DNA of 64,000 nucleotides from an uncultured Myxococcales bacterium (GCA_964368985.1 CAYJDW010000006.1:247-64246), one strand, 5' to 3'; shown: positions 3,471 through 52,626, counted from the first letter of the stretch. Notes: generated by a model not told the origin, from the letters alone. Numbers and translations: made by a program.

Positions 3471-3553
3471 AAAGCGGCGCCGGTTTTTTATCGAAAGGCC
3501 TTTTTTTATTTTCTCACCTCAACTAGGCTTTATCAAAACTGAGGACGAACTAA

Positions 3554-4120
3554 ATGAGTTTCTTTACTCTTCAAAATATTTTATTTTGTTATTTATTTTT
3601 TGCCTTTACTGCTAGCGGGGAAACACCGCTCGGCAACAGAATTTCCGCGAGCGTAAATGGTGGTTTTGGAGGACGTTACCATCTCAGTTATGAGAGAAGA
3701 TTTTCTCATATTTTTGGCTTAGAAGCAGGCGCGGAAATCGGAGAAGATATAATCAAAATACCTTATATTAGATTGCAGCATGCAGGGCCTTTTGCCGCGG
3801 CTAATCTATATTTAACCGCCGAGGAAGAAAAACATCAATTCTATATTTCTCCTCGCATCCATCTCGCTTTTGGTCGATCCATGCACGTAAATGATGATCC
3901 TGCCGATGATGCACGTAAATCGGAAATACTTGGCATCTCAGCACTTCGTGCCTCCGTTTTTGTGATGTATCGCTATCTTTTGCCATTTCAAATGACGATA
4001 GAAGCCGGTCTCGGGGTTGATGCAGTATCAATGCTCATACCTTTCGAACGAGCGCATGCTTTATCGTGGCATTCTTTGCCTATTCCAAAGATTCATCTTG
4101 GGATTGGTTATGCTTTTTAA
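3554..4120 (+). CDS. Small outer-membrane beta-barrel-like protein (hypothetical)
   Basis: A GAGGA RBS precedes the start. The protein has a signal peptide (MSFFTLQNILFCYLFFAFTASG), alternating amphipathic segments and a C-terminal '…GIGYAF' aromatic end typical of OMPs. Confidence 0.5.
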   Translation: MSFFTLQNILFCYLFFAFTASGETPLGNRISASVNGGFGGRYHLSYERRFSHIFGLEAGAEIGEDIIKIPYIRLQHAGPFAAANLYLTAEEEKHQFYISPRIHLAFGRSMHVNDDPADDARKSEILGISALRASVFVMYRYLLPFQMTIEAGLGVDAVSMLIPFERAHALSWHSLPIPKIHLGIGYAF

Positions 4121-4125
4121 TCACA

Positions 4126-7122
4126 TCAAAGAATTAACATCAATATTTTATTAATGGCCACTTCATCAAAGAAAAACCAATAAAAAGTTATAAATAACCA
4201 GATAGTAAATAAGAGCGACCAATAATTGGTGACTATACTTGAATTTATACGTGTTCGTTGTTCCGCAGTGAGAGTTTTATGATAGCTGAATGCGGTAATA
4301 AAGAAGATTATCAATATCATCAGATAAGAACTGATAAGCAATAGTTCCATGTAAATTAAATTTTTGCTGACATAAACAGAGCTAAAATTGCTATGAAGTA
4401 AAAGTGTCGCAAATAATAAAGCTAAACAAGCTGATATGGTCGTACTAATTGTGTTTATTTCTTTATGAGCTAGTAAAATCACAATGAAAAGGGCTGATAA
4501 TATAATCAATTGTGGCAGACCATAAAGTATCCATGCATTGGTTAGGCTGCTTTTTTGTTCAATATTAAAAGTTAGCACTGGTATATTGAAGGAGTGATGA
4601 GTAAAAAGGCCGTCATTTTTTTTAAACATTGAAAAGTTAGTATTAAATATTAAATTTTGATTGTCGTTTTCCGGAGAGATTCCTATAAATTTTCCCGGTT
4701 GTTTAGGTGGATATGAATTAAAATCAGGAACAAAAACTACGGGCTCTATTAAGTTATTTGGCAGAACGGTTAATGATATTGTTTGGATATCAAATGGGTA
4801 AAAATTAATAGTATCATTTATTATTATCGTGGAGTTGAAATTATAGAGCCATTTTATGTCATTGTCCTCGGCAGGAAATTTTCCAAAGGATGTAATCCTA
4901 GTATCCAGTGCTTCTTTAAAATGAAAGGGATAAGGCTCCGCTTGGTCAGATTCTCTCACTTGCCACATTCGACCGCTTATAGTAGCAATTTTGCTATCTT
5001 TGATAAAAAATTCGTCAATCTCAATACCAAACAATATTTTTTTGACATTTTTAATATTACTGCTTTGCAAGATTTTATTTAAAATTAATTCAGTGGAAGG
5101 CGCATCATTTAATTTGCTGTCTTTATTTTTTTCATAAAATTCTAAAGAGGCAAGTTTAATCCAAAATAAAGCAAGTGAAGTTAGTAACACAGCTGTGACA
5201 CTAATTATAAAGAAATATAGATTGTGAGTTTTATTTCTAATGAGCGATGAAATAAGAAATATTAAGGCAATTGCAGATAATGTTGCGAATGCTATGTTTA
5301 ACCCATACCAGGTAAATAGGGTTTTATTGCTATATATTATTTGAGAAAATGAAATATAAGCGAGGCGTAAATCTAGCTTGGCGAGGGCCACAAACCTTAT
5401 AAATGAACCATCATTATTTTCTTGATCAGACCTTAATAATTGATCAACAGTTGAAAAATTTGTATTTTTCAGAAGCAATATATTTTTTTCATTGGTTTCA
5501 GAGTTTATATAATCAAGATTAACTTCTTCTTCTAAAAAATGTCTATGAGGATGATATAAAATCTTATTATCCGAATCAAATGCTATTAAATAACCATAAT
5601 TGGCAATAGATAAGTTGGCTAAATGACTTCTTATTGTGTCCATCTTTAAACTCACCAACACATAGCCAATTATTTTTTTGTCATTTTCATAGATGGGGGC
5701 GCAAAAAGAAATTACATCGACAGAATCAGTATAATCATATCGCTTAGACCAATTTTGAGTGCCTCGGCTGCATGTTTCTGCCCAATAATCATGAAGTTGG
5801 GGGGAAGATCTTGCATCAAAAGAAGTTAATTTAGCTTCTCTTTTTATGCTGGGCCAATCTAAATTTTTGTCATTAAAAATTACATTTATTGCGTAAATTT
5901 TATCATAATTTTTTGCTGTAATTTTAAGACGATTATTGATTAATTTATGGATCAACTTTTTGTCGCTAATATCTTCAGATAAAGAAGAACTAATAAATTC
6001 AGCCAAATTGACTAAACCATTAGTTTGGAGCAATGCATTGTCAACAATGACTTTAGACTCGTTCTCGGCTTCTCCAGCCAAATAAGCGTCGTAGTTTATA
6101 TATTTGTTAATAGAAATAATAGTAAAAAAAGCTGTATGCCCAAATACTAAGGCTAAAAAGAAGATTAGAATGAACCTGTCGGTTTGGAAAAATTTTAAGC
6201 ATAAGTTATTTAAAAATGTGTAAATTAATAATGATAATGGTAGAAAGAGTAATATGAAAAATAATAAGTAAATTATATTAATGCGTACCAAATCCAGCAT
6301 TGAAGCTTCAACATGTTCAATAAAAAAACCGCCATTGATGGTAGGCACTGGCTTATAGAAATAACTTGCACCATTTATATTGCGAGCTTGCCCATAAATG
6401 CCTTTTAATGCCAGGGAAGGGGGGAATTTATTGGCTTCCTCCTGATTTAAATAATTAATCATTAATCCGGTAGTATTTGAATTCTTTCTGATGATAGTTA
6501 TGTTTTGTTGCTGCGATAAGATTATTCCATGCACATTCTCCTGGTTTTCAGAATTAGTCCCCAAAAGCGCGGCAGCAATTTTGGGAGCATCTAAGCTTAT
6601 TGAGGCAAGTCCAATTAGTTTTTGTTGGAAGAAGACTGGAGTAGCGATACTGACAGTTAACCTTTGTTTATTTGACTCCGAAATATATAAACCCGCTACC
6701 TGAGTAGAAAGAAATTTAACAGCGTTTGGAATGGCATCAGGAATGGGAACAAATTGTCCAAGAGGATTCCCAGACAACACGTTATTAAGATTATTGTCCA
6801 GTAGACTGATACCTAAGAATTTTAGCTCGTGCTCAATTCCACTGGCAATTTTGGGATTTTTACTAAAAAAGAGGGAGCTTATTCGAGAGTCATGGGCGAT
6901 TAATTCAGCTTGTTCTTTTAGGTCGTCTAACTCGCTATCAATCGGTGCCATTTGTTCAAGAAGTTTTTTGTTTAATGTATCGAAAAGTATCACTTGCTGT
7001 TTTTCATTGGATAGAACAAAAATCTTGTAAACGAGATGGATAGAAATAAGAAAAAAACCCGCGAAGAAAACCAAAAAAGGCTTCCAACTAAATCGATCAA
7101 AGAAAAATTTAATATATTTCAT
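4126..7122 (-). CDS. Large membrane receptor protein, about 1000 aa. The C-terminus is a pentameric ligand-gated ion channel (pLGIC/Cys-loop family) module: extracellular domain plus M1-M4. It is preceded by two additional periplasmic segments, each flanked by TM hairpins.
   Basis: The C-terminal ~330 aa contain the loop signature 'NFYPFDIQTISLTV' (FPFD-Q, as in the GLIC/ELIC loop). They also contain an M1 helix with conserved Pro (YGLPQLIILSALF), a Ser/Thr/Leu-rich M2 (TISTTISACLALLFATLLL), an M3 helix, a short M3–M4 loop and an M4 helix (TNYWSLLFTIWLF). Upstream, the predicted topology is TM1, ~240-aa periplasmic segment, TM2-3 hairpin, ~250-aa periplasmic segment, TM4-5 hairpin, then the channel extracellular domain. 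The start is chosen at MKYIKFF (ATG at 7122), which overlaps the PBP stop as ATGA. The gene is very AT-rich and Asn/Ile/Lys-rich. Confidence 0.75.
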   Translation of the reverse strand: MKYIKFFFDRFSWKPFLVFFAGFFLISIHLVYKIFVLSNEKQQVILFDTLNKKLLEQMAPIDSELDDLKEQAELIAHDSRISSLFFSKNPKIASGIEHELKFLGISLLDNNLNNVLSGNPLGQFVPIPDAIPNAVKFLSTQVAGLYISESNKQRLTVSIATPVFFQQKLIGLASISLDAPKIAAALLGTNSENQENVHGIILSQQQNITIIRKNSNTTGLMINYLNQEEANKFPPSLALKGIYGQARNINGASYFYKPVPTINGGFFIEHVEASMLDLVRINIIYLLFFILLFLPLSLLIYTFLNNLCLKFFQTDRFILIFFLALVFGHTAFFTIISINKYINYDAYLAGEAENESKVIVDNALLQTNGLVNLAEFISSSLSEDISDKKLIHKLINNRLKITAKNYDKIYAINVIFNDKNLDWPSIKREAKLTSFDARSSPQLHDYWAETCSRGTQNWSKRYDYTDSVDVISFCAPIYENDKKIIGYVLVSLKMDTIRSHLANLSIANYGYLIAFDSDNKILYHPHRHFLEEEVNLDYINSETNEKNILLLKNTNFSTVDQLLRSDQENNDGSFIRFVALAKLDLRLAYISFSQIIYSNKTLFTWYGLNIAFATLSAIALIFLISSLIRNKTHNLYFFIISVTAVLLTSLALFWIKLASLEFYEKNKDSKLNDAPSTELILNKILQSSNIKNVKKILFGIEIDEFFIKDSKIATISGRMWQVRESDQAEPYPFHFKEALDTRITSFGKFPAEDNDIKWLYNFNSTIIINDTINFYPFDIQTISLTVLPNNLIEPVVFVPDFNSYPPKQPGKFIGISPENDNQNLIFNTNFSMFKKNDGLFTHHSFNIPVLTFNIEQKSSLTNAWILYGLPQLIILSALFIVILLAHKEINTISTTISACLALLFATLLLHSNFSSVYVSKNLIYMELLLISSYLMILIIFFITAFSYHKTLTAEQRTRINSSIVTNYWSLLFTIWLFITFYWFFFDEVAINKILMLIL

Positions 7123-8357
7123 TTGCTTGTTTGACTCCAATGCCCGCCCCATCCTTTGTAAAGCTGCTCTAATAATTTGAGCCACTCTTTTTTAGGCCGG
7201 GTAGGAATGAATGGTACCGGCTCAATAGGCATGCCCGAGGACCATAAGATCTTGAAATCACCTATTTTGTTGATTTGAGCGATCCGGATAATACGCCAAG
7301 CGTGCTGGGTATGTGGATCTAAATAAACTAAGCCACTGGGAGAAGCGATTGATTGACCTCGTAATGCCTTTGTTACCGCGCTTGCTTGCCAAGTATTTGC
7401 CGCTTTTACTGCTTGGTGCCAGAGCATGACGCCATTATAAGCCGATTCCATTGGGTCAAAAACTTTAAGCTGGGGATTAAGCAGAGGCTTAATGGCAGAT
7501 AAAAATTGTTCATTTTCTTTTGTATCTATAGCCTGAAAATAACTCCAGGTGGTGTAGTCACCAAGCATGGACTCGTAGCCGAGTAAGCGGACATCTTCTT
7601 CAGTGAGGCTAAAAGACATCGTTGGAATGATATCTGGCGTGATTCCGGCTTCACGTAAGAGATTAAAGAAAATCAGATTAGTATCGCCATTAATAAGATT
7701 TAAAATAACATCGGGCTTTAACGTCTTAATATCATTAATGGCTTGTGAAACATCTTTGGAGCCTAGAGGCATAAAGGAAAAACCCGTCAACACGCCCCCA
7801 TAGGCTTTTAATGCATCTTTAATAATCTCTAAGGCTACTTTTGGAAAAACATAATCACTGCCAACGACATAGAATTTTGGTCCACGTTGTTTAATCATCC
7901 AAGAGACAGCTGGTAAAATTTGTTGATTAGCAGACATTCCTAAATAAAATATATTTTTTGACTGCTCTAACCCTTCGTATTGCAAAGGGTACAGGAGTAA
8001 ATGATCATGTTCTTCAATGACTTCTTTTACTGCTTTACGCGAAGATGAAGTCCAACACCCAAAGATTACAGACACTTGTTCTTTTTCGATAAGTTCGCGT
8101 GCCATTTTGGCAAAATATTGTTCATCCGACCGGCCATCTTTTATGATGGGAACAATAGTTTTTCCTAAAATCCCGCCTTGTTGATTAATGACTTCAATAG
8201 CATGCAACGTAGCTGCTAAGACAGGGCCTTCTGCCGTAGCCATAGACCCACTTTGTGAGTGAAGCACACCCACCTTAATAACCCCGCTGTTTTTGCTACA
8301 GCCGACCAGAAACAAGGCCAGGCAAAATTTTGTGGCTATTATAAAGATGTTTTTCAT
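7119..8357 (-). CDS. Type-I periplasmic binding protein (ANF-receptor/LivJ/AmiC-like) lipoprotein
   Basis: The signal peptide and lipobox are LFLVGCSK. The N-terminal 'IKVGVLHSQSGSMATAEGPVLAATLHAIEVINQQGGILGK' is characteristic of the Peripla_BP_6 / Leu-Ile-Val-binding family. The stop overlaps the start of the pLGIC gene. Confidence 0.75.
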   Translation of the reverse strand: MKNIFIIATKFCLALFLVGCSKNSGVIKVGVLHSQSGSMATAEGPVLAATLHAIEVINQQGGILGKTIVPIIKDGRSDEQYFAKMARELIEKEQVSVIFGCWTSSSRKAVKEVIEEHDHLLLYPLQYEGLEQSKNIFYLGMSANQQILPAVSWMIKQRGPKFYVVGSDYVFPKVALEIIKDALKAYGGVLTGFSFMPLGSKDVSQAINDIKTLKPDVILNLINGDTNLIFFNLLREAGITPDIIPTMSFSLTEEDVRLLGYESMLGDYTTWSYFQAIDTKENEQFLSAIKPLLNPQLKVFDPMESAYNGVMLWHQAVKAANTWQASAVTKALRGQSIASPSGLVYLDPHTQHAWRIIRIAQINKIGDFKILWSSGMPIEPVPFIPTRPKKEWLKLLEQLYKGWGGHWSQTSK

Positions 8358-8554
8358 TGAAATATATTAATACAGTTTAAATTTTTTATATTGAAATTAT
8401 TGGTGGATAATGGATAAAACCTGTAAAATGGCGTATAAAATAGATATTCTAAATCATTGTCCGAGAACTTGATACTTTTCCCTATCCAGGCGTTGACTAC
8501 GGCGTCAGTAGGCCTAAGTTTTAAGCTGCCTCACCTAAAAATTCCTGGTGAACC

Positions 8555-9694
8555 ATGAGATACGCACTTTCGAGCTTCCTGCTAGAAAAATTTCCAGAAC
8601 TGGCCACCCCTATCTATGGTCTCCCAGCTTGGTATTGGGCTAGTATTTTGTTGGCATTGCTTATTTCTTTGCTGGCCGCAAGCTCATTAAAAAAACCTCT
8701 TGGCAATTTGGTCGCCTTTTTATCGAACCAGAAAGAACTGCACGATAAAAGGCTCTTCATTGAGAAACTCAATGGTCCCATCAGCGTTTTTGCGACCATC
8801 GTGAGCTTTCTTATTTTGAGTATTTTCATCAAAGACCCTGAGCAAAAAGATCAGACCGTATCGGTGGCTCTGAAACTGGCAGTTTTCTTAGGTTTTACCT
8901 ATTTGTTTTACCGCCTCATTGATCTTGGTTTCACCCGCATGATTCGCAATAATCAAAGTCCCCGCTCGCGCGTAGGCTTGGTTTTGCCGCTGGGGCGCAG
9001 GGTGGCAAAAACCATGCTGATAATTTTGGCATTTTTGCTCCTGCTGGGTCAGGTGGGTGTCGATGTTTCGGCCTTTTTAGTGGGATTAGGAGTAGGGGGC
9101 TTGGCCATCGCTTTAGCGGCGCAAAAGATCTTAGAAAACCTTTTTGGCGGCGCGGTGCTCTCTCTCGATCAGCCTTTTCAAGTAGGCGATTATTGCCGCT
9201 GTGGCGATATTCTAGGCTATATCGAGGAAATCGGCATTCGCTCTACAAGAATACGGACTTTGGATAGAACCCTCGTCACGATTCCTAATTCTAAGCTTTC
9301 GGAAATCCATATCGAAAACTATATGGAGCGAGAAAAAATACGGCTCTATTCGATCTTACGCATTGATTTATCGACTTCTCTTGCGCAGCTGCATGAACTA
9401 TTATCCGAGTTTGAACGCTTGCTTTTATCTAATGAGAATTTTTACCAGGATATATATCGTATCCGCTTAATTGCTATTACTGATTTAGGATATGAGGTGG
9501 AAATATATTCATTCGCGAAGACTACTGAATGGCGAGTATTTGCCGCCATGAGAGAAGAATTATTTTTTACCTATTTGGCGAAAATGGAAGAGCTCGGCGT
9601 TAAGTTTGCCTTTCCGAGCCAGCATGTCTATTTGCAAGAACCCGAAGGCCAAGAAATTAAAACTCAATCGCCTTCAGTTGTTCATGAATCCTAA
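8555..9694 (+). CDS. Small-conductance mechanosensitive channel (MscS family)
   Basis: N-terminal TM helices are followed by the MscS beta-domain signature '…[51 protein letters not shown]…'. Confidence 0.8.
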
Positions 9695-45492: not shown

Positions 45493-46506
45493 ATGAATAT
45501 GAAGAGATTTGATAAAGTGGCAGTTTTGGGCGGTGGCGCTTTTGGCGTGGCGCTGAGTAATGTCGTGGCGAAAAAATCCGCTGAGGTTGTGCTGTGGGCG
45601 CGAAATGAAGTGGTAGTGGAGGCGATTAACAGCCAGCATCGTCATCCGATCCAGCTCACTGACATTGAACTTGCCCCAAACATTCGAGCGACGACTAATT
45701 TGCAAGATGCAAGTTCTCAGGCCTCCCTTGTGATATTGGCGGTCCCTATGAATGCGATGGGTGAAGTATTGCGGGCTGCCAGTATCGATAAAGATGCCAC
45801 CATTATCAGTACAGCCAAGGGAATTATCAGCGATTCCTTGGAGCTGCCCTGCGATATTATGAAGAAAAATGTGTCGAAGGATCTAGCCTATCGCGCTTGT
45901 TATTTATCGGGCCCATCTTTTGCTATTGAACTTGCCCGGGGGCTTCCCACCGCCTTAACTATTGCGAGTCTTTGCCAGGCCTCGGCGCGAGAATTTCAAA
46001 ATCATTTTTCGAGTAAAAGTTGTCGGCTTTATTGGTCCGATGATGTCATCGGTGTTTGTGTGGGTGGCGCCATGAAAAATGTTATCGCTATTGCTGCGGG
46101 GGCTTGTACGGGGCTCGATTTAGGCCGCAATGCCTTGGCGGCTTTAATAACGCGGGGCCTCGCGGAAGTCAGCAGGCTTGCGCAAAAAATGGGAGCAAAG
46201 CCCGCCACCATGAGTGGCCTGTCGGGCGTGGGCGATCTTTTGCTGAGTTGCACCGATGATATGTCGCGAAATCATCGCCTAGGAATGTTGCTTGCGCGAG
46301 GGGCGGATTTAAAGAGCGCGCTCGCTGCTATTGGGACGGTGGTGGAAGGTGCCAAGACTGCAGAAGCGATTGTGGCGCTCAGTAAAAAATACCATATTGA
46401 AATGCCTATTAGTTATGCGGTCTATCAGGTGCTTTATGGTGGGCTTAAGCCGGAAGTTGCTATTTCAGCCCTTCTTGAACGGGCTCCGAAAGAAGAAAGA
46501 AACTGA
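45493..46506 (+). CDS. gpsA: NAD(P)H-dependent glycerol-3-phosphate dehydrogenase
   Basis: 'NVIAIAAGACTGLDLGRNALAALITRGLAEVSRLAQKMGAKPATMSGLSGVGDLLLSCTDDMSRNHRLG' is a near-canonical GpsA core. Confidence 0.85.
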   Translation: MNMKRFDKVAVLGGGAFGVALSNVVAKKSAEVVLWARNEVVVEAINSQHRHPIQLTDIELAPNIRATTNLQDASSQASLVILAVPMNAMGEVLRAASIDKDATIISTAKGIISDSLELPCDIMKKNVSKDLAYRACYLSGPSFAIELARGLPTALTIASLCQASAREFQNHFSSKSCRLYWSDDVIGVCVGGAMKNVIAIAAGACTGLDLGRNALAALITRGLAEVSRLAQKMGAKPATMSGLSGVGDLLLSCTDDMSRNHRLGMLLARGADLKSALAAIGTVVEGAKTAEAIVALSKKYHIEMPISYAVYQVLYGGLKPEVAISALLERAPKEERN

Positions 46507-47177
46507 GCACAAATGACTCTGATAGCCAACGACTTTTCGAATAAAATAACCTCGGTGGCCGCTGAGGCGATGAAATCTAAATCGTGGCTTGAGAAAATAA
46601 CAATGGCATTGTCGGCGGCGCGCTCTAATATATTGGCGGCTAAAACTTTCTTTTGGCTAAAGTCTAGAAAAACTGAAGGCTCATCGAGGAGAATCAGGCG
46701 GGCTTGGTCATTGATCAAAACTTTGGCGATATCGATCAGGCGGTGTTCTCCGCCGCTCATGTTGCTTAAAGGTCGGTGAAGTAAGTGGTGGATATTTAGC
46801 TTGTCGGCGAGTGTATCGATGCGGCTTAGTTGGGTTTGGTCGAGCCAGGAAAAACCATGGTGGGGCATGAGCCCGTGGGCGATGCGATTTTTGGCTATGC
46901 AATAAGGCTGGATCGGGGAAACCTGCTGCAGCATGGCGATTTTTTTAGCGCGCTCAAGAGGATGAAGCCCGGCAATGGGCTTTTGGTCGAGTTTTATTTC
47001 GCCGGCATGGGGCGCGAGCAATGCTCCCAAAGTGTGAAGAAAGGTGGATTTTCCAGCGCCATTATTACCCACTAAGGCGACGATAGCGCCGCTTTCCCAA
47101 ACCCCGCTAAAATTTTCGATGAGTAGTGAGGAATTTCTTATTAATCTGAGTTTATCGATGACGAGCTCAGTCTTCAT
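46434..47177 (-). CDS. ABC transporter ATP-binding protein (FecE/BtuD-type)
   Basis: The Walker A motif is 'GNNGAGKST', the signature is 'LSGGE' and the Walker B is 'ILLDEP'. The 3' end overlaps the gpsA 3' end convergently by about 73 nt. Confidence 0.8.
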   Translation of the reverse strand: MKTELVIDKLRLIRNSSLLIENFSGVWESGAIVALVGNNGAGKSTFLHTLGALLAPHAGEIKLDQKPIAGLHPLERAKKIAMLQQVSPIQPYCIAKNRIAHGLMPHHGFSWLDQTQLSRIDTLADKLNIHHLLHRPLSNMSGGEHRLIDIAKVLINDQARLILLDEPSVFLDFSQKKVLAANILERAADNAIVIFSSHDLDFIASAATEVILFEKSLAIRVICAQFLSSFGARSRRAEIATSGLSPP

Positions 47178-48162
47178 GAACCCCTCTTAGAAGCAGGAAA
47201 AAAAATACCGGCGATAATATCAGAGCGGTCAAGGCTCCAACCGGAATTTCGGTTTGCCAGCAGGCAAAGCTTAGACGGCTCAGGGTATCAAAAAAAACTA
47301 AAATAATAGCCCCTAAAAAGCTTGCGGCAGGTAAGACAAATCTTAGGTCGGGAAATATTATCAAACGCACAAAATGTGGAATCACCAGCCCCAAAAAACC
47401 AATCATGCCGGCAAAAGCTACGACGTTGCCGATCAATAAGCAGTTAGCGATGATGGCGAGCTTTACGGTGGCATGAGCATTAATGCCCAGTATGGTGGTC
47501 TCAGTGCTGCCAAACGATAAAATTTCGAGCTCTCCGCGGAGGTGAATTAATATGGCCAAACCAAGCAGCCAGGCGGGAATAATAAACCATAATTGCGAGC
47601 TTTCCACGGCGCTAATATGGCCCACTAACCAATAAAGAAGGCTTTGGGTTTTGGTGGGGGGCAGAATAGTTTTAAGCAAGGTTATTAAGGCTGCGGCCAG
47701 AGAATTGATCAGGACGCCCACAAGGAGGCAATGGCTCAAACTTTGTTTAGGTGATTTGGTTAAATAGAAAAAAATAAAAAGGAAAGCGGTTAGCCCCCCG
47801 AGGATGGCGCCAATGCTTGGGGCAAGCCAGATATTGGTGGACCAAAAGCTAATGACTAAAGCTGCACCTAAGGCCGCGCCGCCGCTTATGCCGAACAAAT
47901 GCGGGTCGGCCAATGGATTGCGAAAAATAGCTTGTAAAGAAGCCCCGCTCGCGGCCAAAGAAGAGCCGGCAATGATGGCCAACAAGGTTCGACAGCTTCT
48001 ATAATTAAAAACCGCTGCATGCTGAAGGCGATCAGTGAGGACAGCGGTAGACCACCCCAAAGGGCCCGTGATCATGGACACTAAGATGGCAAAAACGAGA
48101 AGCACACCCAAAAGGGTGAGAATTCTGCGGTTGAGCTGAGGAGTCATGACATAGTGGGGCAT
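47167..48162 (-). CDS. ABC transporter permease (FecCD/BtuC family)
   Basis: A ~10-TM protein typical of the FecCD permease family. Confidence 0.8.
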   Translation of the reverse strand: MPHYVMTPQLNRRILTLLGVLLVFAILVSMITGPLGWSTAVLTDRLQHAAVFNYRSCRTLLAIIAGSSLAASGASLQAIFRNPLADPHLFGISGGAALGAALVISFWSTNIWLAPSIGAILGGLTAFLFIFFYLTKSPKQSLSHCLLVGVLINSLAAALITLLKTILPPTKTQSLLYWLVGHISAVESSQLWFIIPAWLLGLAILIHLRGELEILSFGSTETTILGINAHATVKLAIIANCLLIGNVVAFAGMIGFLGLVIPHFVRLIIFPDLRFVLPAASFLGAIILVFFDTLSRLSFACWQTEIPVGALTALILSPVFFFLLLRGVHED

Positions 48163-48164
48163 AA

Positions 48165-49019
48165 TTAGACGCCGGTCGACAACAAGTTGGAAAAATACCC
48201 AATATCTTCGATAAGGGCCGGAGATGGCGAAAAAAATAAGGGGCGCTTGGGCACTATCAAAGTCGGGCCAAAATTAAAGAGGTTAAGCCCTAGACTTTGT
48301 AAGAGTCGTTCATAGGCTTTCAAATTTTCTTGTCCTTCAAGCAGGACCATTACATGAGGTGGCGCGGTCAACAAGTTTTCCAAGGGCCAAATCGGCCAGG
48401 CCGTATGCGGGTTTGTACCGAGATTAGCAAAACCCATGGCCTCGACTATTTCTGCAATAAAGGTTTTCGCTCCCGCCACAACCAAGGGTGAATGAGCGAT
48501 AGCCAAGAGAATAGTGGGGCGGTTTTGGCCTGGGGCCCATGTTTGGGCTTTAGCATCGCTAAGGGCTCGATCGAGGCGCTCATTTAAAAGCTGGCCTTTC
48601 TTTTTGACACCAAGTTTTTCACCGAGCTTTTCATTGATAAAACGAATGTCGCTGAGGGAATCGGGTTGATGGGCAAATATTTCTATGCCGTTTTCCTTGA
48701 GGCGACGAAGTTTGTCGGCGGCGAAAACATGGGGAACGGCCAGCACCAAATCAGGCTTGAGACTTAAAATAATTTCAAAGTTGGCGTCGGCAAAAGTGCC
48801 GATGCGCGTGACGTTTTTTACTGCATCGAGGTCGCAGTGGTTTGTGATCCCCGCTAGGCGATGGGCTTGTCCGAGGGCCACGACCGTCTCGCAATAGGAG
48901 GGCGCCATGGCGATAATGCGTTGATAGGAAGAATTTTTAGGTGCGACGGGGGAAGAGCCAGCAAAATAAAACCCGGCTGCGATAAAAAACGCTACAAAAA
49001 GAGCCAAACCAAGTTTCAC
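48165..49019 (-). CDS. Periplasmic substrate-binding protein (BtuF/FhuD/TroA-like class III)
   Basis: '…IIAMAPSYCETVVALG…LKPDLVLAV' is the class-III signature. A GTG start at 49019 overlaps the upstream stop as GTGA; an ATG at 49082 is the alternative. Confidence 0.7.
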   Translation of the reverse strand: MKLGLALFVAFFIAAGFYFAGSSPVAPKNSSYQRIIAMAPSYCETVVALGQAHRLAGITNHCDLDAVKNVTRIGTFADANFEIILSLKPDLVLAVPHVFAADKLRRLKENGIEIFAHQPDSLSDIRFINEKLGEKLGVKKKGQLLNERLDRALSDAKAQTWAPGQNRPTILLAIAHSPLVVAGAKTFIAEIVEAMGFANLGTNPHTAWPIWPLENLLTAPPHVMVLLEGQENLKAYERLLQSLGLNLFNFGPTLIVPKRPLFFSPSPALIEDIGYFSNLLSTGV

Positions 49020-50578
49020 GGGCCAAATATCTCCAAAAGATCGAGCGGAACTATTTTTTCCTGGCCCCCTATGACGGCCCACGCGCCAAAGCCAGGTTGA
49101 TAGTCTTTGGCATAGTCTTTAAAGCGAAAAATAAGTTGCTCAGGACTAGGCATGAGGCGCTTATCCTGGTCGCCATTGAGCATGAGTGGCTCAATAAAGG
49201 GAAAGGGGAAATAACCTTCATTAAGGCTATAGACCACAAGACTGCCATCACTGGACGCGAGAAAGACCAAATCGTCATGCCATAGTGATGCTAGAGTAAA
49301 ACTGAAAGGGCGATGAAAGGGGTGGGGCTTTATGTCATTATCGGTGAATGCGGTAGCATTCTCCTCGAGAACGGCTATTTTATTGCCATAGGCCAAAGGC
49401 ACCACGAGTTTAGAGCCCACTAAAGCGGGCTGGCCCGGACTAAAGTCGACCAGGGCTATCGGATTGCTAAGACTCAAGCTTGTTTTATCCGCGGAAAGAG
49501 TAAGTTTTACGAGACCAGCGTCGTCGCTGGTGATGGGATTTGTATTTGTATCACGATAAGCTCCTGCACAACTAACCCATATTTCAGTTTCATTCTTCAC
49601 CATAAAATAGCGAGGATTTTTAAAAGGGAGCTCAACAATTGCTTCGCTACGAATCTTATTATTTTCGATCTTGAGCAAGGCCACTATTCCTTTTCCCACC
49701 ACCGCCAAATCATTCTTAGTGTGATCGGCGAACTGATAATAGTTAGCAAAGCTTGCTAAATAAGTGGTGTCGTCGAGAGCAATTATTTGCTCAGGACTAT
49801 GAGCAAAAGATTTACTAATGCTCGTGCTAGATTCCGAAGTACCGTCGACACTCAGTGGTATTTTTACCGTGAGGGCCGGGTTATTTTCAAAGAGATAGAG
49901 ATTGCCTGTCTTATCTTTGAGGCGGCTTTTATCCGCAATACTTCCTTGGCTTAGATTTAATAAAGCGAGTTCACCACTCCCAGAAAAGGGCACAAGTGCA
50001 TGATTGCCTTTAGATGCGACCATGCGAGGAAAAAGGTTTGCAGTGGCGTTTGGATTTAAGCCAATGGTTGAACTAGCTTTTTTCTTCAGGCGTCCCGTCT
50101 CGTCGACATTATGAAGACTAATGAGCATTGCATTGCTCGATAAAATCGCGGCACTAGAGCCGTTTAACGCCACATAGCTGAGCTCATTGTCGGTACTAAA
50201 AGGCTTTTTAGCGACATTGGCGATTGCCTCTGGCAGATTCTTTATCTGATAGGTTTCAGAATAATGCTTGGAATCCACGCTAAAGGTGAGATCGCCGACA
50301 CTCGCACTTTCTTGAAGGGTCAACTCAACATCAAATCTTCCTTCTGCGTCCGAGATGGTATTTTCCTTCTTGTTATTATGGCTTCCCACCTCGACAAAGA
50401 CCGGAGTATTAGGCGGTGTTGCTCCCCGAAAACCGCGAGCGCGGACGCCGCGTGAAGTTTTTGCCATTACGATCAGCTGGTGCTTGATGGGACCTGTAGG
50501 CAATATCTTGAACTTAGGTTCATCCTTGCAGGATGCAAGCAGGAGAAGGGCGGTGAGCGCGATTATTGATTTCTTCAT
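49016..50578 (-). CDS. Lipoprotein (LLLASC), a probable surface accessory protein of the TonB-dependent receptor
   Basis: The lipobox is present. An N-terminal CarbopepD_reg-like 'GATPPNTPVFVEV…DAEGRFDVEL' segment is followed by a beta-rich domain. The start overlaps the receptor stop by 1 nt. Confidence 0.55.
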   Translation of the reverse strand: MKKSIIALTALLLLASCKDEPKFKILPTGPIKHQLIVMAKTSRGVRARGFRGATPPNTPVFVEVGSHNNKKENTISDAEGRFDVELTLQESASVGDLTFSVDSKHYSETYQIKNLPEAIANVAKKPFSTDNELSYVALNGSSAAILSSNAMLISLHNVDETGRLKKKASSTIGLNPNATANLFPRMVASKGNHALVPFSGSGELALLNLSQGSIADKSRLKDKTGNLYLFENNPALTVKIPLSVDGTSESSTSISKSFAHSPEQIIALDDTTYLASFANYYQFADHTKNDLAVVGKGIVALLKIENNKIRSEAIVELPFKNPRYFMVKNETEIWVSCAGAYRDTNTNPITSDDAGLVKLTLSADKTSLSLSNPIALVDFSPGQPALVGSKLVVPLAYGNKIAVLEENATAFTDNDIKPHPFHRPFSFTLASLWHDDLVFLASSDGSLVVYSLNEGYFPFPFIEPLMLNGDQDKRLMPSPEQLIFRFKDYAKDYQPGFGAWAVIGGQEKIVPLDLLEIFGP

Positions 50579-52401
50579 TACAAATTCTCCAATTCAACTT
50601 GTCCAAAAAAGATGGTGCCGGGGAGCGGCATTTCGTAAATATCTCGCGCAGTCTTGTGATTAAAAACGTTGCTGATGGAGAGCGAAGTAGTGAGTCTTTT
50701 ATAGACGCGCGCCGAGAAAATCGCGTCGACGAGAGCATAAGCCTTGGTCTTAAGAGTGCCGTTAAGATTGGCTGAAGTTGGCCCGCGATAGCGGCCAAGC
50801 AAGCTCATGCTTAAGAAATCTTCGGTCCCAAAACGTAATTTGCTGAAACCAAGGAAGGGCGGCGCCTGAGGTAATGGTGCTTTGCTGGCTTTTACTCGCG
50901 TGTATAAAATTGAGTTATTGCTTTCAAACATCAACCATTCACGGGGTTCATAGCTAAAATTTACATCGATGCCATAGCGTCTGGCCGTGTGAGCATTGAT
51001 GGGTTGTTGCTTAGTGCCGAGCAAGGGAACATAGACGATCACGTCGCTGAGCCACCCCAAAAAACCGGAGACATGGATTTGAGCGAGGGGGCTTATTCTG
51101 TAATTAGTACTCAGTTCAATATCCCACACGCTTTCTTTTTGCAGGTCCGGATTGCCGACGAAGAAACGATTGTTAGCGTGCAATTCCATGAACGTGGGAA
51201 GGCGTTGAGCGCGAACAATGCGGGTGGTGACACTCATGCGATCGCTCGGCTCAATGGTTATGCCTAGGTCTTTCTTAAATACCAAACCATAAGTCTGATA
51301 CCCGATCATGCTGAAATTACTAAATACTGTGGGCTTCATACGACCATTTAGGCGGCTAACGCGTTTCATGAAAAACCCAGCACCGATGCGGGTTTGATCA
51401 ATTTCATAGGCTCTTTCAATCACGATTTGTTGAGCCAAATCGAATTCCGCCATGGATTTAAACCATTTTAGCGGTCTAATACCGAGCTTAATCTCATGCG
51501 TTGTGCTCATGAATTGTTCGTCATTGGTGGGAATGTCGGTCGTGGAATAATTAAACAAACTATTGGCCACATTGGTATAAAATTCCGCCCGATCCAGTTT
51601 TTTAGCAGCTCCTACTGATAGGCCAGAATAGACCGAATGGCTTCGCAAATGGGGGGTGGGAGAGGATTGAAAACCGGCGATTCCACCTTCGTGGGTGTTT
51701 AAGGCAACTAATGCGTGTCCGCTGCCGGTGGGGGATTTTCTTTGATAGTTCACCAAAGCTTGAAGGCGATGCTGATCATTATTGTCGCGATAATAATTAT
51801 TGTTTGGATCTTTTTTATCTAGATGGGGGGAGGAATAGGCAAAATTGCCTTCGGTGGAAGAAACTTGCAAGGCCACCAACATGCTCGAATAATCGTCGAG
51901 CGGCGCCCCCGCACTTGCGCCCGCTTTGAGGCTTGATTGGGTGCCTATGCCGAAAACACCCTTGGCATAGGGCGCGGTAAAATGGGGTAAGCTAATGTGA
52001 AGGCCTTCCGCATTGGTTTGCATGCGGCTGGCGGCGAAGAGAAACATGGCATTGGCATCGCTAAAGCCGTTCACGGGATTATTAAGATTGAGTCCCTCTA
52101 AATCTACTCTGAGACGTCCATCGGACAAGCCTCGATAGCGAAGTTCAGAGCGCCCCAGAGGTCCATTTCTCTCCGTCAGCGTCAGTCCTGGAATATGAAA
52201 AAGCATCGCGGAATCGCTGAGTTTTTGATGGGAGCTTTGGTCGGTAGTATAGCTAAAGCTAGAAGCATGGGGAGGCTCGATTTCCCCCTCGACCACGGTT
52301 TGATTTTCTTGCAACTCAAGTTCAGTCGTAGGTTTTTCGGTATCGCTAAATGCCTGCGGGGCCAAAATAAAAAGCGCCAACCAACTATTTTTCAATGACA
52401 T
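50578..52401 (-). CDS. TonB-dependent outer-membrane receptor
   Basis: A signal peptide and a plug domain ('…GLTLTERNGPLGRSELRYRGL') are present, followed by a 22-strand barrel. The start is chosen at MSLKNSW. Confidence 0.8.
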   Translation of the reverse strand: MSLKNSWLALFILAPQAFSDTEKPTTELELQENQTVVEGEIEPPHASSFSYTTDQSSHQKLSDSAMLFHIPGLTLTERNGPLGRSELRYRGLSDGRLRVDLEGLNLNNPVNGFSDANAMFLFAASRMQTNAEGLHISLPHFTAPYAKGVFGIGTQSSLKAGASAGAPLDDYSSMLVALQVSSTEGNFAYSSPHLDKKDPNNNYYRDNNDQHRLQALVNYQRKSPTGSGHALVALNTHEGGIAGFQSSPTPHLRSHSVYSGLSVGAAKKLDRAEFYTNVANSLFNYSTTDIPTNDEQFMSTTHEIKLGIRPLKWFKSMAEFDLAQQIVIERAYEIDQTRIGAGFFMKRVSRLNGRMKPTVFSNFSMIGYQTYGLVFKKDLGITIEPSDRMSVTTRIVRAQRLPTFMELHANNRFFVGNPDLQKESVWDIELSTNYRISPLAQIHVSGFLGWLSDVIVYVPLLGTKQQPINAHTARRYGIDVNFSYEPREWLMFESNNSILYTRVKASKAPLPQAPPFLGFSKLRFGTEDFLSMSLLGRYRGPTSANLNGTLKTKAYALVDAIFSARVYKRLTTSLSISNVFNHKTARDIYEMPLPGTIFFGQVELENL

Positions 52402-52626
52402 TATGCACCTAGTGACCAGATTAACCAATGGATTGCGACGGGAAAGGCAAGCAAATGAATTCATCAGCGAGAGCTAGCAATCGGATTTTGATAATTCAAA
52501 TGGCGTTGTTGCATAAATATTAAAAACACTTTGCTGGCCCCACTACTTCAGCCTCCCTTTAGGATTATTATTTAACGAATAATGGGTTCAATGACATTCC
52601 TGTTCATGGATGTGCTAGGAGATCGA

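Follow-up and report, generated by a model that had tools for sequence, protein, structure and literature searches.

The in vivo roles of bacterial ion channels of the pentameric ligand-gated type (pLGICs) remain largely obscure, and only a handful of them (GLIC, ELIC, sTeLIC and DeCLIC) have been studied. Among these, an accessory domain is found in DeCLIC only, a channel that is modulated by calcium and for which, to our knowledge, no binding-protein partner is known. In LuxP–LuxQ, as also in TorT–TorS and MBP–Tar, a type-I periplasmic binding protein (PBP-I) is the ligand-loaded co-receptor of a membrane sensor; in LuxQ, a double PAS/PDC (dCache-like) domain forms the periplasmic part, and the genes lie side by side. 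In 2004, fusions of bacterial pLGICs to MCP-N plus Cache domains and to PBP-I were predicted by Tasneem, Iyer, Jakobsson and Aravind, who also predicted operons containing stand-alone type-II periplasmic binding proteins (PBP-II) or Cache proteins and suggested a role in chemoreception; the Cache-fused prokaryotic ART-LGICs came from Methanosarcina, Cytophaga and Microbulbifer (PMC549065). By one published account, DeCLIC is the sole pLGIC whose N-terminal domain has a determined structure, and this domain was proposed to meet unknown periplasmic partners (PMC9897478). Here we describe a gene pair in a 64,000-nucleotide stretch of DNA from an uncultured Myxococcales bacterium (GCA_964368985.1 CAYJDW010000006.1:247-64246; the whole stretch is referred to as the window). 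On the minus strand of positions 4,126–8,357, this pair encodes a divergent pLGIC subunit preceded by two dCache sensor modules and, overlapping the start of the channel gene, a urea-type periplasmic binding lipoprotein. We favour the view, at a probability of roughly 0.55, that the two genes specify one periplasmic chemosensory channel complex, in which the urea-type co-receptor would act on the outer dCache module and so control ion flux.

Our comparison reveals both likeness to and departure from the described systems. As in the fusions predicted in 2004, a pLGIC core is combined with an N-terminal Cache-type sensor, and the family members of about 700 amino acids (aa) with a single dCache domain (e.g., Reichenbachiella P0002) fit that description. 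The present locus is distinct in that it contains two dCache modules with a transmembrane (TM) hairpin between successive modules, whereas the text of the 2004 paper describes a signal peptide plus added domains and no hairpins. Its operonic partner is a PBP-I (Peripla_BP_5, urea-type), whereas the paper has PBP-II in operons and PBP-I as fusions only, and this partner correlates strictly with the extra dCache. In Tasneem et al. 2004 and in full-text literature searches, we found neither the tandem dCache arrangement nor the TM-hairpin cassettes of the 7- and 9-TM subunits, and neither a PBP-I of urea type that is strictly coupled as an operon partner nor its link to the extra dCache. An earlier note on this DNA, made from the sequence alone, had called the architecture unusual; this stands for the tandem dCache modules and the PBP-I pairing, but not for the general idea, and the novelty needs tempering because Tasneem et al. 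had already described Cache–pLGIC fusions, fusions to PBP-I and operons with PBP-II in 2004. Like DeCLIC (Desulfofustis; PDB 6v4s/6v4a), which is among the top structural matches of the channel module, the subunit carries extra periplasmic N-terminal modules; in DeCLIC these are two jelly-roll lobes that connect directly with the extracellular domain, without additional TM helices, whereas here the dCache domains are placed on TM hairpins. By analogy, the closest mechanistic counterpart would be LuxP–LuxQ. The output of systems of that type is a cytoplasmic histidine kinase or chemoreceptor domain, in contrast to the ion channel without any cytoplasmic domain predicted here.

The binding-protein gene (7119–8357, minus strand), identified from its open reading frame (ORF) and domain matches, encodes a 412-aa UrtA/AmiC-type periplasmic binding lipoprotein, and the channel gene (4126–7122, minus strand; stop codon at 4126–4128) encodes a 998-aa two-dCache pLGIC subunit. 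The genes share an ATGA stop/start overlap at 7119–7122 (minus strand), and the two translationally coupled ORFs reported in the earlier note, one of them of about 1000 aa, are borne out with the same coordinates and strand. Mechanically, the channel ORF extends over 4126–7185 (minus strand) and begins with GTG, the ATG at 7122 yielding the 998-aa form. Public gene calls differ on this start, JGI giving a GTG-extended protein of 1019 aa and NCBI/Logan the 998-aa ATG form. We favour the latter because of the ATGA overlap, a GGAG located about 12 nt 5' of this ATG, and the alignment with relatives. Promoter and terminator scans gave nothing better than shuffled sequence.

The C-terminal module of the channel protein is a very divergent pLGIC, as judged from profile alignments and structure prediction. 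In the AlphaFold2 (AF2) model of this module (pLDDT 82.8), an extracellular (periplasmic) beta-sandwich domain (aa 657–861; 4540–5154, minus strand) is followed by a four-helix transmembrane bundle that aligns with GLIC M1–M4 (aa 862–998; 4129–4539, minus strand). A Foldseek search with the model returned 692 PDB matches at E ≤ 1e-3; every one of the 50 at the head of the list is a pLGIC. Exhaustive phmmer searching with aa 657–998 yielded at least 577 representative clusters at E ≤ 1e-3; the conservation and architecture counts given here refer to the best 150 of these representatives. A profile termed A1, made from 28 of the 577 channel-module family sequences, matched GLIC in the PDB at E 2.2e-7 to 1e-5, spanning GLIC residues 97–314 and pairing YPFD with YPFD, together with the pre-M1 segment, the M1 proline and M2–M4. 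In the window protein, the Pro-loop (Cys-loop equivalent) motif YPFD (aa 775–778; 4789–4800, minus strand) lies within INFYPFDIQT, and the corresponding pattern [YF]P[FL]D is near-invariant in the 150 representatives, as are the PD dipeptide (799–800), the pre-M1 Arg, the M1 Pro, Phe904, His910, Arg914, Glu926, Tyr933 and the WP pair in M4. The FYPFD-Q loop, the M1 proline (Pro870) and the helices M1, M2, M3 and M4 named in the earlier note are all present, as are the beta-sandwich and the four-helix bundle that it expected of a predicted structure.

Profile libraries gave a different picture from the fold. Pfam Neur_chan_LBD (PF02931) and Neur_chan_memb (PF02932) had no match even at E ≤ 10 in the whole protein or in its extracellular or transmembrane parts, and none in 10 family members either. 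Pfam and NCBIfam scans of the whole channel protein and of sub-fragments likewise gave no Neur_chan match, and single-sequence PDB searches (phmmer) with the channel protein gave no match. The Neur_chan search that the earlier note had proposed therefore fails as it was written, and its word "unmistakable" overstates the sequence signal because the Pfam Neur_chan models miss the entire family; the pLGIC fold itself holds, from the AF2 model, the Foldseek matches and the GLIC profile match. This family is distinct from GLIC, ELIC and sTeLIC, with which it shares ~10–13% identity, in being undetected by the Neur_chan models, in having motifs of its own (PD after the Pro-loop, H...R at the M2 end, YxE in M3 and WP in M4), and in having an N-terminal TM helix ahead of the extracellular domain, core forms included. 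The subunit presumably assembles as a homopentamer, in which M2 would line the pore with S893 (2'), S897 (6'), L900 (9'), F904 (13') and L907 (16'), in a register that is tentative and taken from the GLIC hidden Markov model alignment alone.

The topology of the channel protein was predicted from hydropathy and charge only, by a Kyte–Doolittle scan and the charges of the loops. Nine hydrophobic segments (aa 13–36, 283–301, 318–337, 605–628, 634–656, 862–885, 889–910, 921–946 and 966–985) enclose soluble segments of 246 aa (37–282), 267 aa (338–604) and 205 aa (657–861). The predicted cytoplasmic short loops (e.g., RNKTH) are net positive and the large segments net negative, which fits the positive-inside rule, and the predicted cytoplasmic stretches are all at most about 20 aa, leaving no cytoplasmic domain. 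This pattern is consistent with a predicted 9-TM subunit with its N-terminus inside and all three large modules in the periplasm. The earlier note had arrived at the same nine helices and extracytoplasmic modules, and had put the two extra hairpin-delimited segments at about 240–250 aa each (here 246 and 267 aa). TM1 (aa 13–36; 7015–7086, minus strand) is a predicted signal anchor with a hydropathy peak of 2.1 and a positively charged N-terminus. The TM2–TM3 hairpin (aa 283–337; 6112–6276, minus strand) shows peaks of 2.73 and 2.43 on either side of a short net-positive loop. The TM4–TM5 hairpin (aa 605–656; 5155–5310, minus strand), with the loop RNKTH, was recognized by hydropathy and has an equivalent in position in ~100 family members; a conservation search of this hairpin found little conserved other than Trp654.

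Both upstream segments are dCache sensor domains, as assigned by Pfam for module 2 and by Foldseek and profile for module 1, which answers the question raised in the earlier note as to whether they are Cache, PAS or another fold. Module 2 (aa 338–604; 5311–6111, minus strand) matches Pfam dCache_1 (PF02743) over aa 375–533 (E 7e-13, 49.1 bits vs a cutoff of 45) and aligns with the single dCache of the ~700-aa family members. Module 1 (aa 37–282; 6277–7014, minus strand) is a divergent dCache domain, specific to the forms with an associated binding protein, for which no Pfam match reached threshold. Its AF2 model (pLDDT 91.6, pTM 0.88) shows a long N-terminal helix and two PDC lobes in a TM-flanked segment, and Foldseek aligned it over its full length (~250 columns) with the dCache ligand-binding domains of Mlp24, PctA, DctB, Tlp3 and CtaA, at E values down to the 1.6e-7 of Mlp24. 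Consistent with this assignment, a module-1 profile searched against the PDB picked up sensors of the dCache and sCache types, with E values from 2.6e-4 upwards. By iterated profile, module 1 is homologous in 30 of the 32 long family members and weakly matches module 2. Module 2 has DYW in place of the RxWY-type motif, the amino-acid-sensing motif being judged absent by eye only. Its cysteines at aa 451 and 474 (~5701–5772) are conserved among the four closest relatives, with Cys474 invariant and Cys451 displaced by one position in one sequence, and may form a disulfide.

The binding protein is of the UrtA/AmiC type and has an intact urea pocket, as read from its sequence. A lipoprotein signal peptide with the lipobox LVGC (Cys20; 8298–8357, minus strand) precedes a Venus-flytrap Peripla_BP_5 domain (aa 27–387; 7197–8279, minus strand), which matches the Pfam model (PF13433) at E 1.3e-131 over profile positions 1–361 of 363; a weaker ANF_receptor match is also present. 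PDB matches include 8tg1 (E 4e-109), UrtA (7s6e/8hic/7s6f, ~1e-80) and AmiC (4e-47). In P. marinus UrtA, the residues around urea are W120, S122, Y141, Q144, E146, Y190, F192, N246 and S274 (PMC10392092). All nine are present in the window protein as W102, S104, Y123, Q126, E128, Y169, F171, N223 and S250; they were assigned by motif and spacing (WTS, YPLQYE, DYVF, NGD and MSFS), S250 coming from a pairwise alignment to 7s6e and not from a structure. These pocket residues are largely kept in five partner binding proteins of related loci. The earlier note had described an ANF-receptor/LivJ-type lipoprotein, of which the lipoprotein and the weak ANF_receptor match hold, but not a LivJ-like specificity, the protein being of UrtA/AmiC type with an intact urea pocket. 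We infer that its physiological ligand is urea or a close small amide.

Like UrtA (of UrtABCDE; PDB 8HIC, 7S6E, 7S6F) and AmiC, the window protein belongs to the Peripla_BP_5 fold family and conserves the nine urea contacts. It is distinct from UrtA in its score against the UrtA equivalog model (NCBIfam TIGR03407; 403.9 bits, under the curated cutoff of 492.75), in the absence of adjoining urtBCDE genes, in its membrane tether, in a conserved C-terminal tail and in its coupling to a channel gene. The tail, EW..LL..LY.GWG..W, is common to most of the partner binding proteins, which at other loci are lipoproteins or are anchored by an N-terminal TM helix. At none of the loci examined, the window and 7 related ones, does a gene for a Urt-type permease or ATPase adjoin the pair, and the only ATP-binding cassette (ABC) system found among the window ORFs scanned is FecCD-type. 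The sub-cutoff UrtA score, the lack of adjoining Urt genes and the membrane-tethered partners lead us to regard the protein as a probable dedicated co-receptor rather than a transport component, as part of the explanation favoured above. The FecCD-type importer of the window (46434–52464, minus strand; ATPase, FecCD permease and Peripla_BP_2) is accompanied by a TonB-dependent receptor and by a 520-aa ORF without assignment, and is unrelated to urea transport.

Three architectures account for most of the 150 representatives: core forms of ~360–450 aa, in which an N-terminal TM helix precedes the extracellular domain and its four following TM helices (40/150), one-dCache forms of ~700 aa with 7 hydrophobic segments (67/150), and two-dCache forms of ~920–1130 aa with 9 segments (30/150); the remaining 13 comprise 2 unusually long proteins and 11 fragments. 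In the simplest reading, TM–dCache–TM cassettes were added ahead of a signal-anchored core, giving 5-, 7- and 9-TM subunits. This would explain the hairpins, because every cassette adds two TM helices and keeps the topology.

Gene neighbourhoods point to a binding-protein partnership that is tied to the extra outer dCache and not to the channel as such. A survey of pLGIC homologues for PBP partners found a Peripla_BP_5 gene overlapping the channel start in 7/7 two-dCache members examined (the window and six others), in neighbourhoods that are otherwise unrelated. The six are P0011, P0012, P0015, P0014, P0020 and P0134, with 37%, 32%, 27%, 28%, 24% and 27% identity, respectively, to the window protein in the channel module; stop/start overlaps of 1–16 nt occur in six related loci, and the arrangement of the window pair recurs in near-identical metagenomic copies. 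By contrast, no upstream Peripla_BP_5 gene is found at the one-dCache members P0023, P0002 and P0050 (0/3) or at the core member P0013 (0/1). The difference between 7/7 and 0/4 (Fisher's exact p ~0.003) comes from a sample that is small and not randomly chosen. A metagenome scan with the module-1 alignment gave 11 loci, mostly distant dCache histidine kinases. At L018 4511–6879 (contig Ga0114945_10002151), the gene next in line after a Peripla_BP_5 gene encodes a free-standing TM–dCache–TM protein of 395 aa; its match to the module-1 profile has E 1e-57, and no channel module lies downstream. This split, channel-less pair points to module 1, and not the pore, as the partner of the binding protein. 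The conserved coupling, the domain identities and the intact urea pocket together support the suggestion in the earlier note of a split binding protein with a multi-sensor channel as one signalling unit.

In the complex that we propose, the co-translated, tethered UrtA-type lipoprotein would bind urea or a very similar small amide and close, and the closed form would dock on the outermost dCache domain, module 1. Docking would be relayed to the extracellular and transmembrane domains of the channel via module 2 and/or via the TM hairpins packed at the channel periphery, biasing the gating of the M2-lined pentameric pore and changing the membrane potential or the ion content. Further ligand inputs may come in through module 2 and through the extracellular domain of the channel itself. 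The subunit has no cytoplasmic domain, and ion flux through the pore is therefore the sole plausible output. A bolder form of this proposal, which we hold only tentatively, is that the locus represents the first recognized binding-protein-gated pLGIC, in which a urea-loaded, tethered Venus-flytrap on a dedicated dCache opens or closes a Cys-loop-type pore, and in which the nine TM helices are arranged with the hairpins around M1–M4. We know of no solved pLGIC with accessory hairpins packed around M1–M4. If true, this would be a bacterial counterpart of the flytrap-plus-channel logic of ionotropic glutamate receptors, built on the other great ligand-gated channel scaffold.

In this regard, the locus offers a concrete candidate signalling unit with a predicted ligand, a predicted co-receptor, a docking module and an ion-flux output, and the analysis reveals a family of at least 577 representatives that the standard Pfam Neur_chan models leave unlabelled. 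If the coupling is real, the pair would show how an external binding protein allosterically controls a Cys-loop-type channel, would provide structural biology with a new class of multidomain pLGIC, and would bring a form of urea sensing that works by ion flux into bacterial signal transduction.

Several observations weigh against this proposal. The Pfam Neur_chan models fail to detect the channel family, the urea pocket is also compatible with other very small amides, and docking on module 1 is argued from co-occurrence alone (n = 7 vs 4, plus one split locus). The poor sequence conservation of the hairpin helices disfavours a specific relay role for them. The M1–M2 charge-selectivity region is not conserved in the family, and ion selectivity therefore cannot be predicted. 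In addition, the window protein departs from its family at the pre-M1 Arg position, where it has Ser858 (Arg in 138/150 representatives) next to Lys857, at 914, where it has Ser (Arg in 145/150), and at M4 position 969, again Ser (Pro in 144/150). In canonical pLGICs, the pre-M1 Arg is important for gating and pairs with the Pro-loop aspartate; because it is replaced by Ser, gating may be altered or lost in the window protein.

Of the explanations that compete with a binding-protein-controlled channel, the one that survives best, though we think it unlikely, is that the two proteins function independently, the channel being gated only by small ligands that bind its dCache or extracellular domains directly and the binding protein sharing its transcript while scavenging a nutrient for a transporter encoded elsewhere. 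Such a division of labour would suit the fully canonical urea pocket, and dCache domains usually bind small molecules directly, as the PDB relatives Mlp24, PctA and Tlp3 illustrate. It sits poorly with a stop/start overlap that is kept in 7/7 divergent two-dCache members despite unrelated neighbourhoods, with the sub-cutoff equivalog score and membrane tether of the binding protein, and with the specificity of the association for module 1.

It is less probable still that the channel module is a degenerate pLGIC that has lost gating or conduction and persists as a pentameric membrane scaffold for the sensors. The loss of three family-invariant residues, including the pre-M1 Arg, would agree with decay, as would the strongly AT-biased, atypical composition of the gene (GC content at third codon positions, GC3, 0.29 vs 0.40–0.52 in neighbours). 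However, P0010, the relative nearest to the window protein, with 50% identity over the channel module, carries the same three substitutions, so that they appear lineage-specific and maintained; the Pro-loop, the M1 Pro, the PD motif, F904, H910, E926 and Y933 are retained; and the intact 998-codon ORF is found at ≥90% identity in several independent metagenomes. A scaffold without a cytoplasmic domain would, moreover, have no output. That the UrtA-like protein hands urea or an amide to the pentameric pore, as a facilitated uptake pathway replacing UrtBCDE, is very improbable: UrtA-family proteins normally serve uptake, the pocket is intact, no ABC partner is encoded nearby and the window has an amidase gene at a distance of 3 kb, but the amidase is not conserved at other loci, the association follows the extra dCache and not the pore (0/4 without module 1, present at a channel-less locus), known pLGIC pores are M2-lined ion pathways with hydrophobic gates, and we know of no pLGIC that acts as a solute importer. 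A co-receptor-controlled channel accounts better than these three alternatives for the module-1-specific association and the L018 locus.

The channel family is poorly accessible to indexed searches. A word-indexed homologue search with the full channel protein retrieved no more than the query and a single Cache match; with the C-terminal module by itself it gave no match and missed even the query's own cluster, and with the A1 profile it gave one protein. Such an index may systematically overlook AT-rich, hydrophobic sequences like these, and it was only through the exhaustive phmmer search that the family came to light. A profile scan with the family alignment A2 of species-representative genome contigs, which apparently do not include the window's own genome, gave only unrelated Shewanella Cache matches. 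The two unusually long members, P0063 (1282 aa) and P0066 (1302 aa), are without the module-1 signature, and P0066 has its pLGIC module at aa 386–689, followed by ~600 more residues. In Reichenbachiella sp. 5M10 (L016 2868–8200; MDGR01000007.1), three tandem genes encode proteins of 708, 701 and 362 aa. The channel-module profile matches the two longer products; the third is of core length but undetected by the profile, and the three may form heteromeric assemblies. They are followed by genes for a K+ channel (Ion_trans_2) and for an SBP_bac_3/Lig_chan-Glu_bd protein.

In the window, a low-GC patch at 3500–8500 (29–40% GC vs ~47% in the flanks) spans the channel gene, the binding-protein gene and a gene for a 188-aa protein, with GC3 values of 0.29, 0.38 and 0.31, respectively (0.40–0.52 in other window genes). 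Because of this contrast with the flanks, the composition suggests that the pair and the 188-aa gene were acquired horizontally from a lower-GC donor. The 188-aa ORF (3554–4120, plus strand) ends 5 bp from the convergent channel-gene stop and encodes a beta-rich protein with a signal peptide and with GIGYAF at its C-terminus, which is probably a small beta-barrel of the outer membrane; Pfam, NCBIfam and PADLOC gave no match for it, and it was rejected as a third component, being conserved in same-organism contigs only. On the other side, an MscS-type mechanosensitive channel gene (8555–9694, plus strand) is divergent from the pair across a 197-bp intergenic region. It and the amidase gene were rejected as functional partners, since neither is conserved at other loci, and PADLOC found no defence-system match for the pair and its neighbours. 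Farther away, the window contains a FabI of the PRK06300 type (31154–32026, plus strand). At three of the relatives' loci (L008, L028 and L029), genes for RCC1/WD40, SNF2, ankyrin-repeat and deoxynucleoside-kinase proteins hint at uncultured bacteria that are possibly associated with amoebae.

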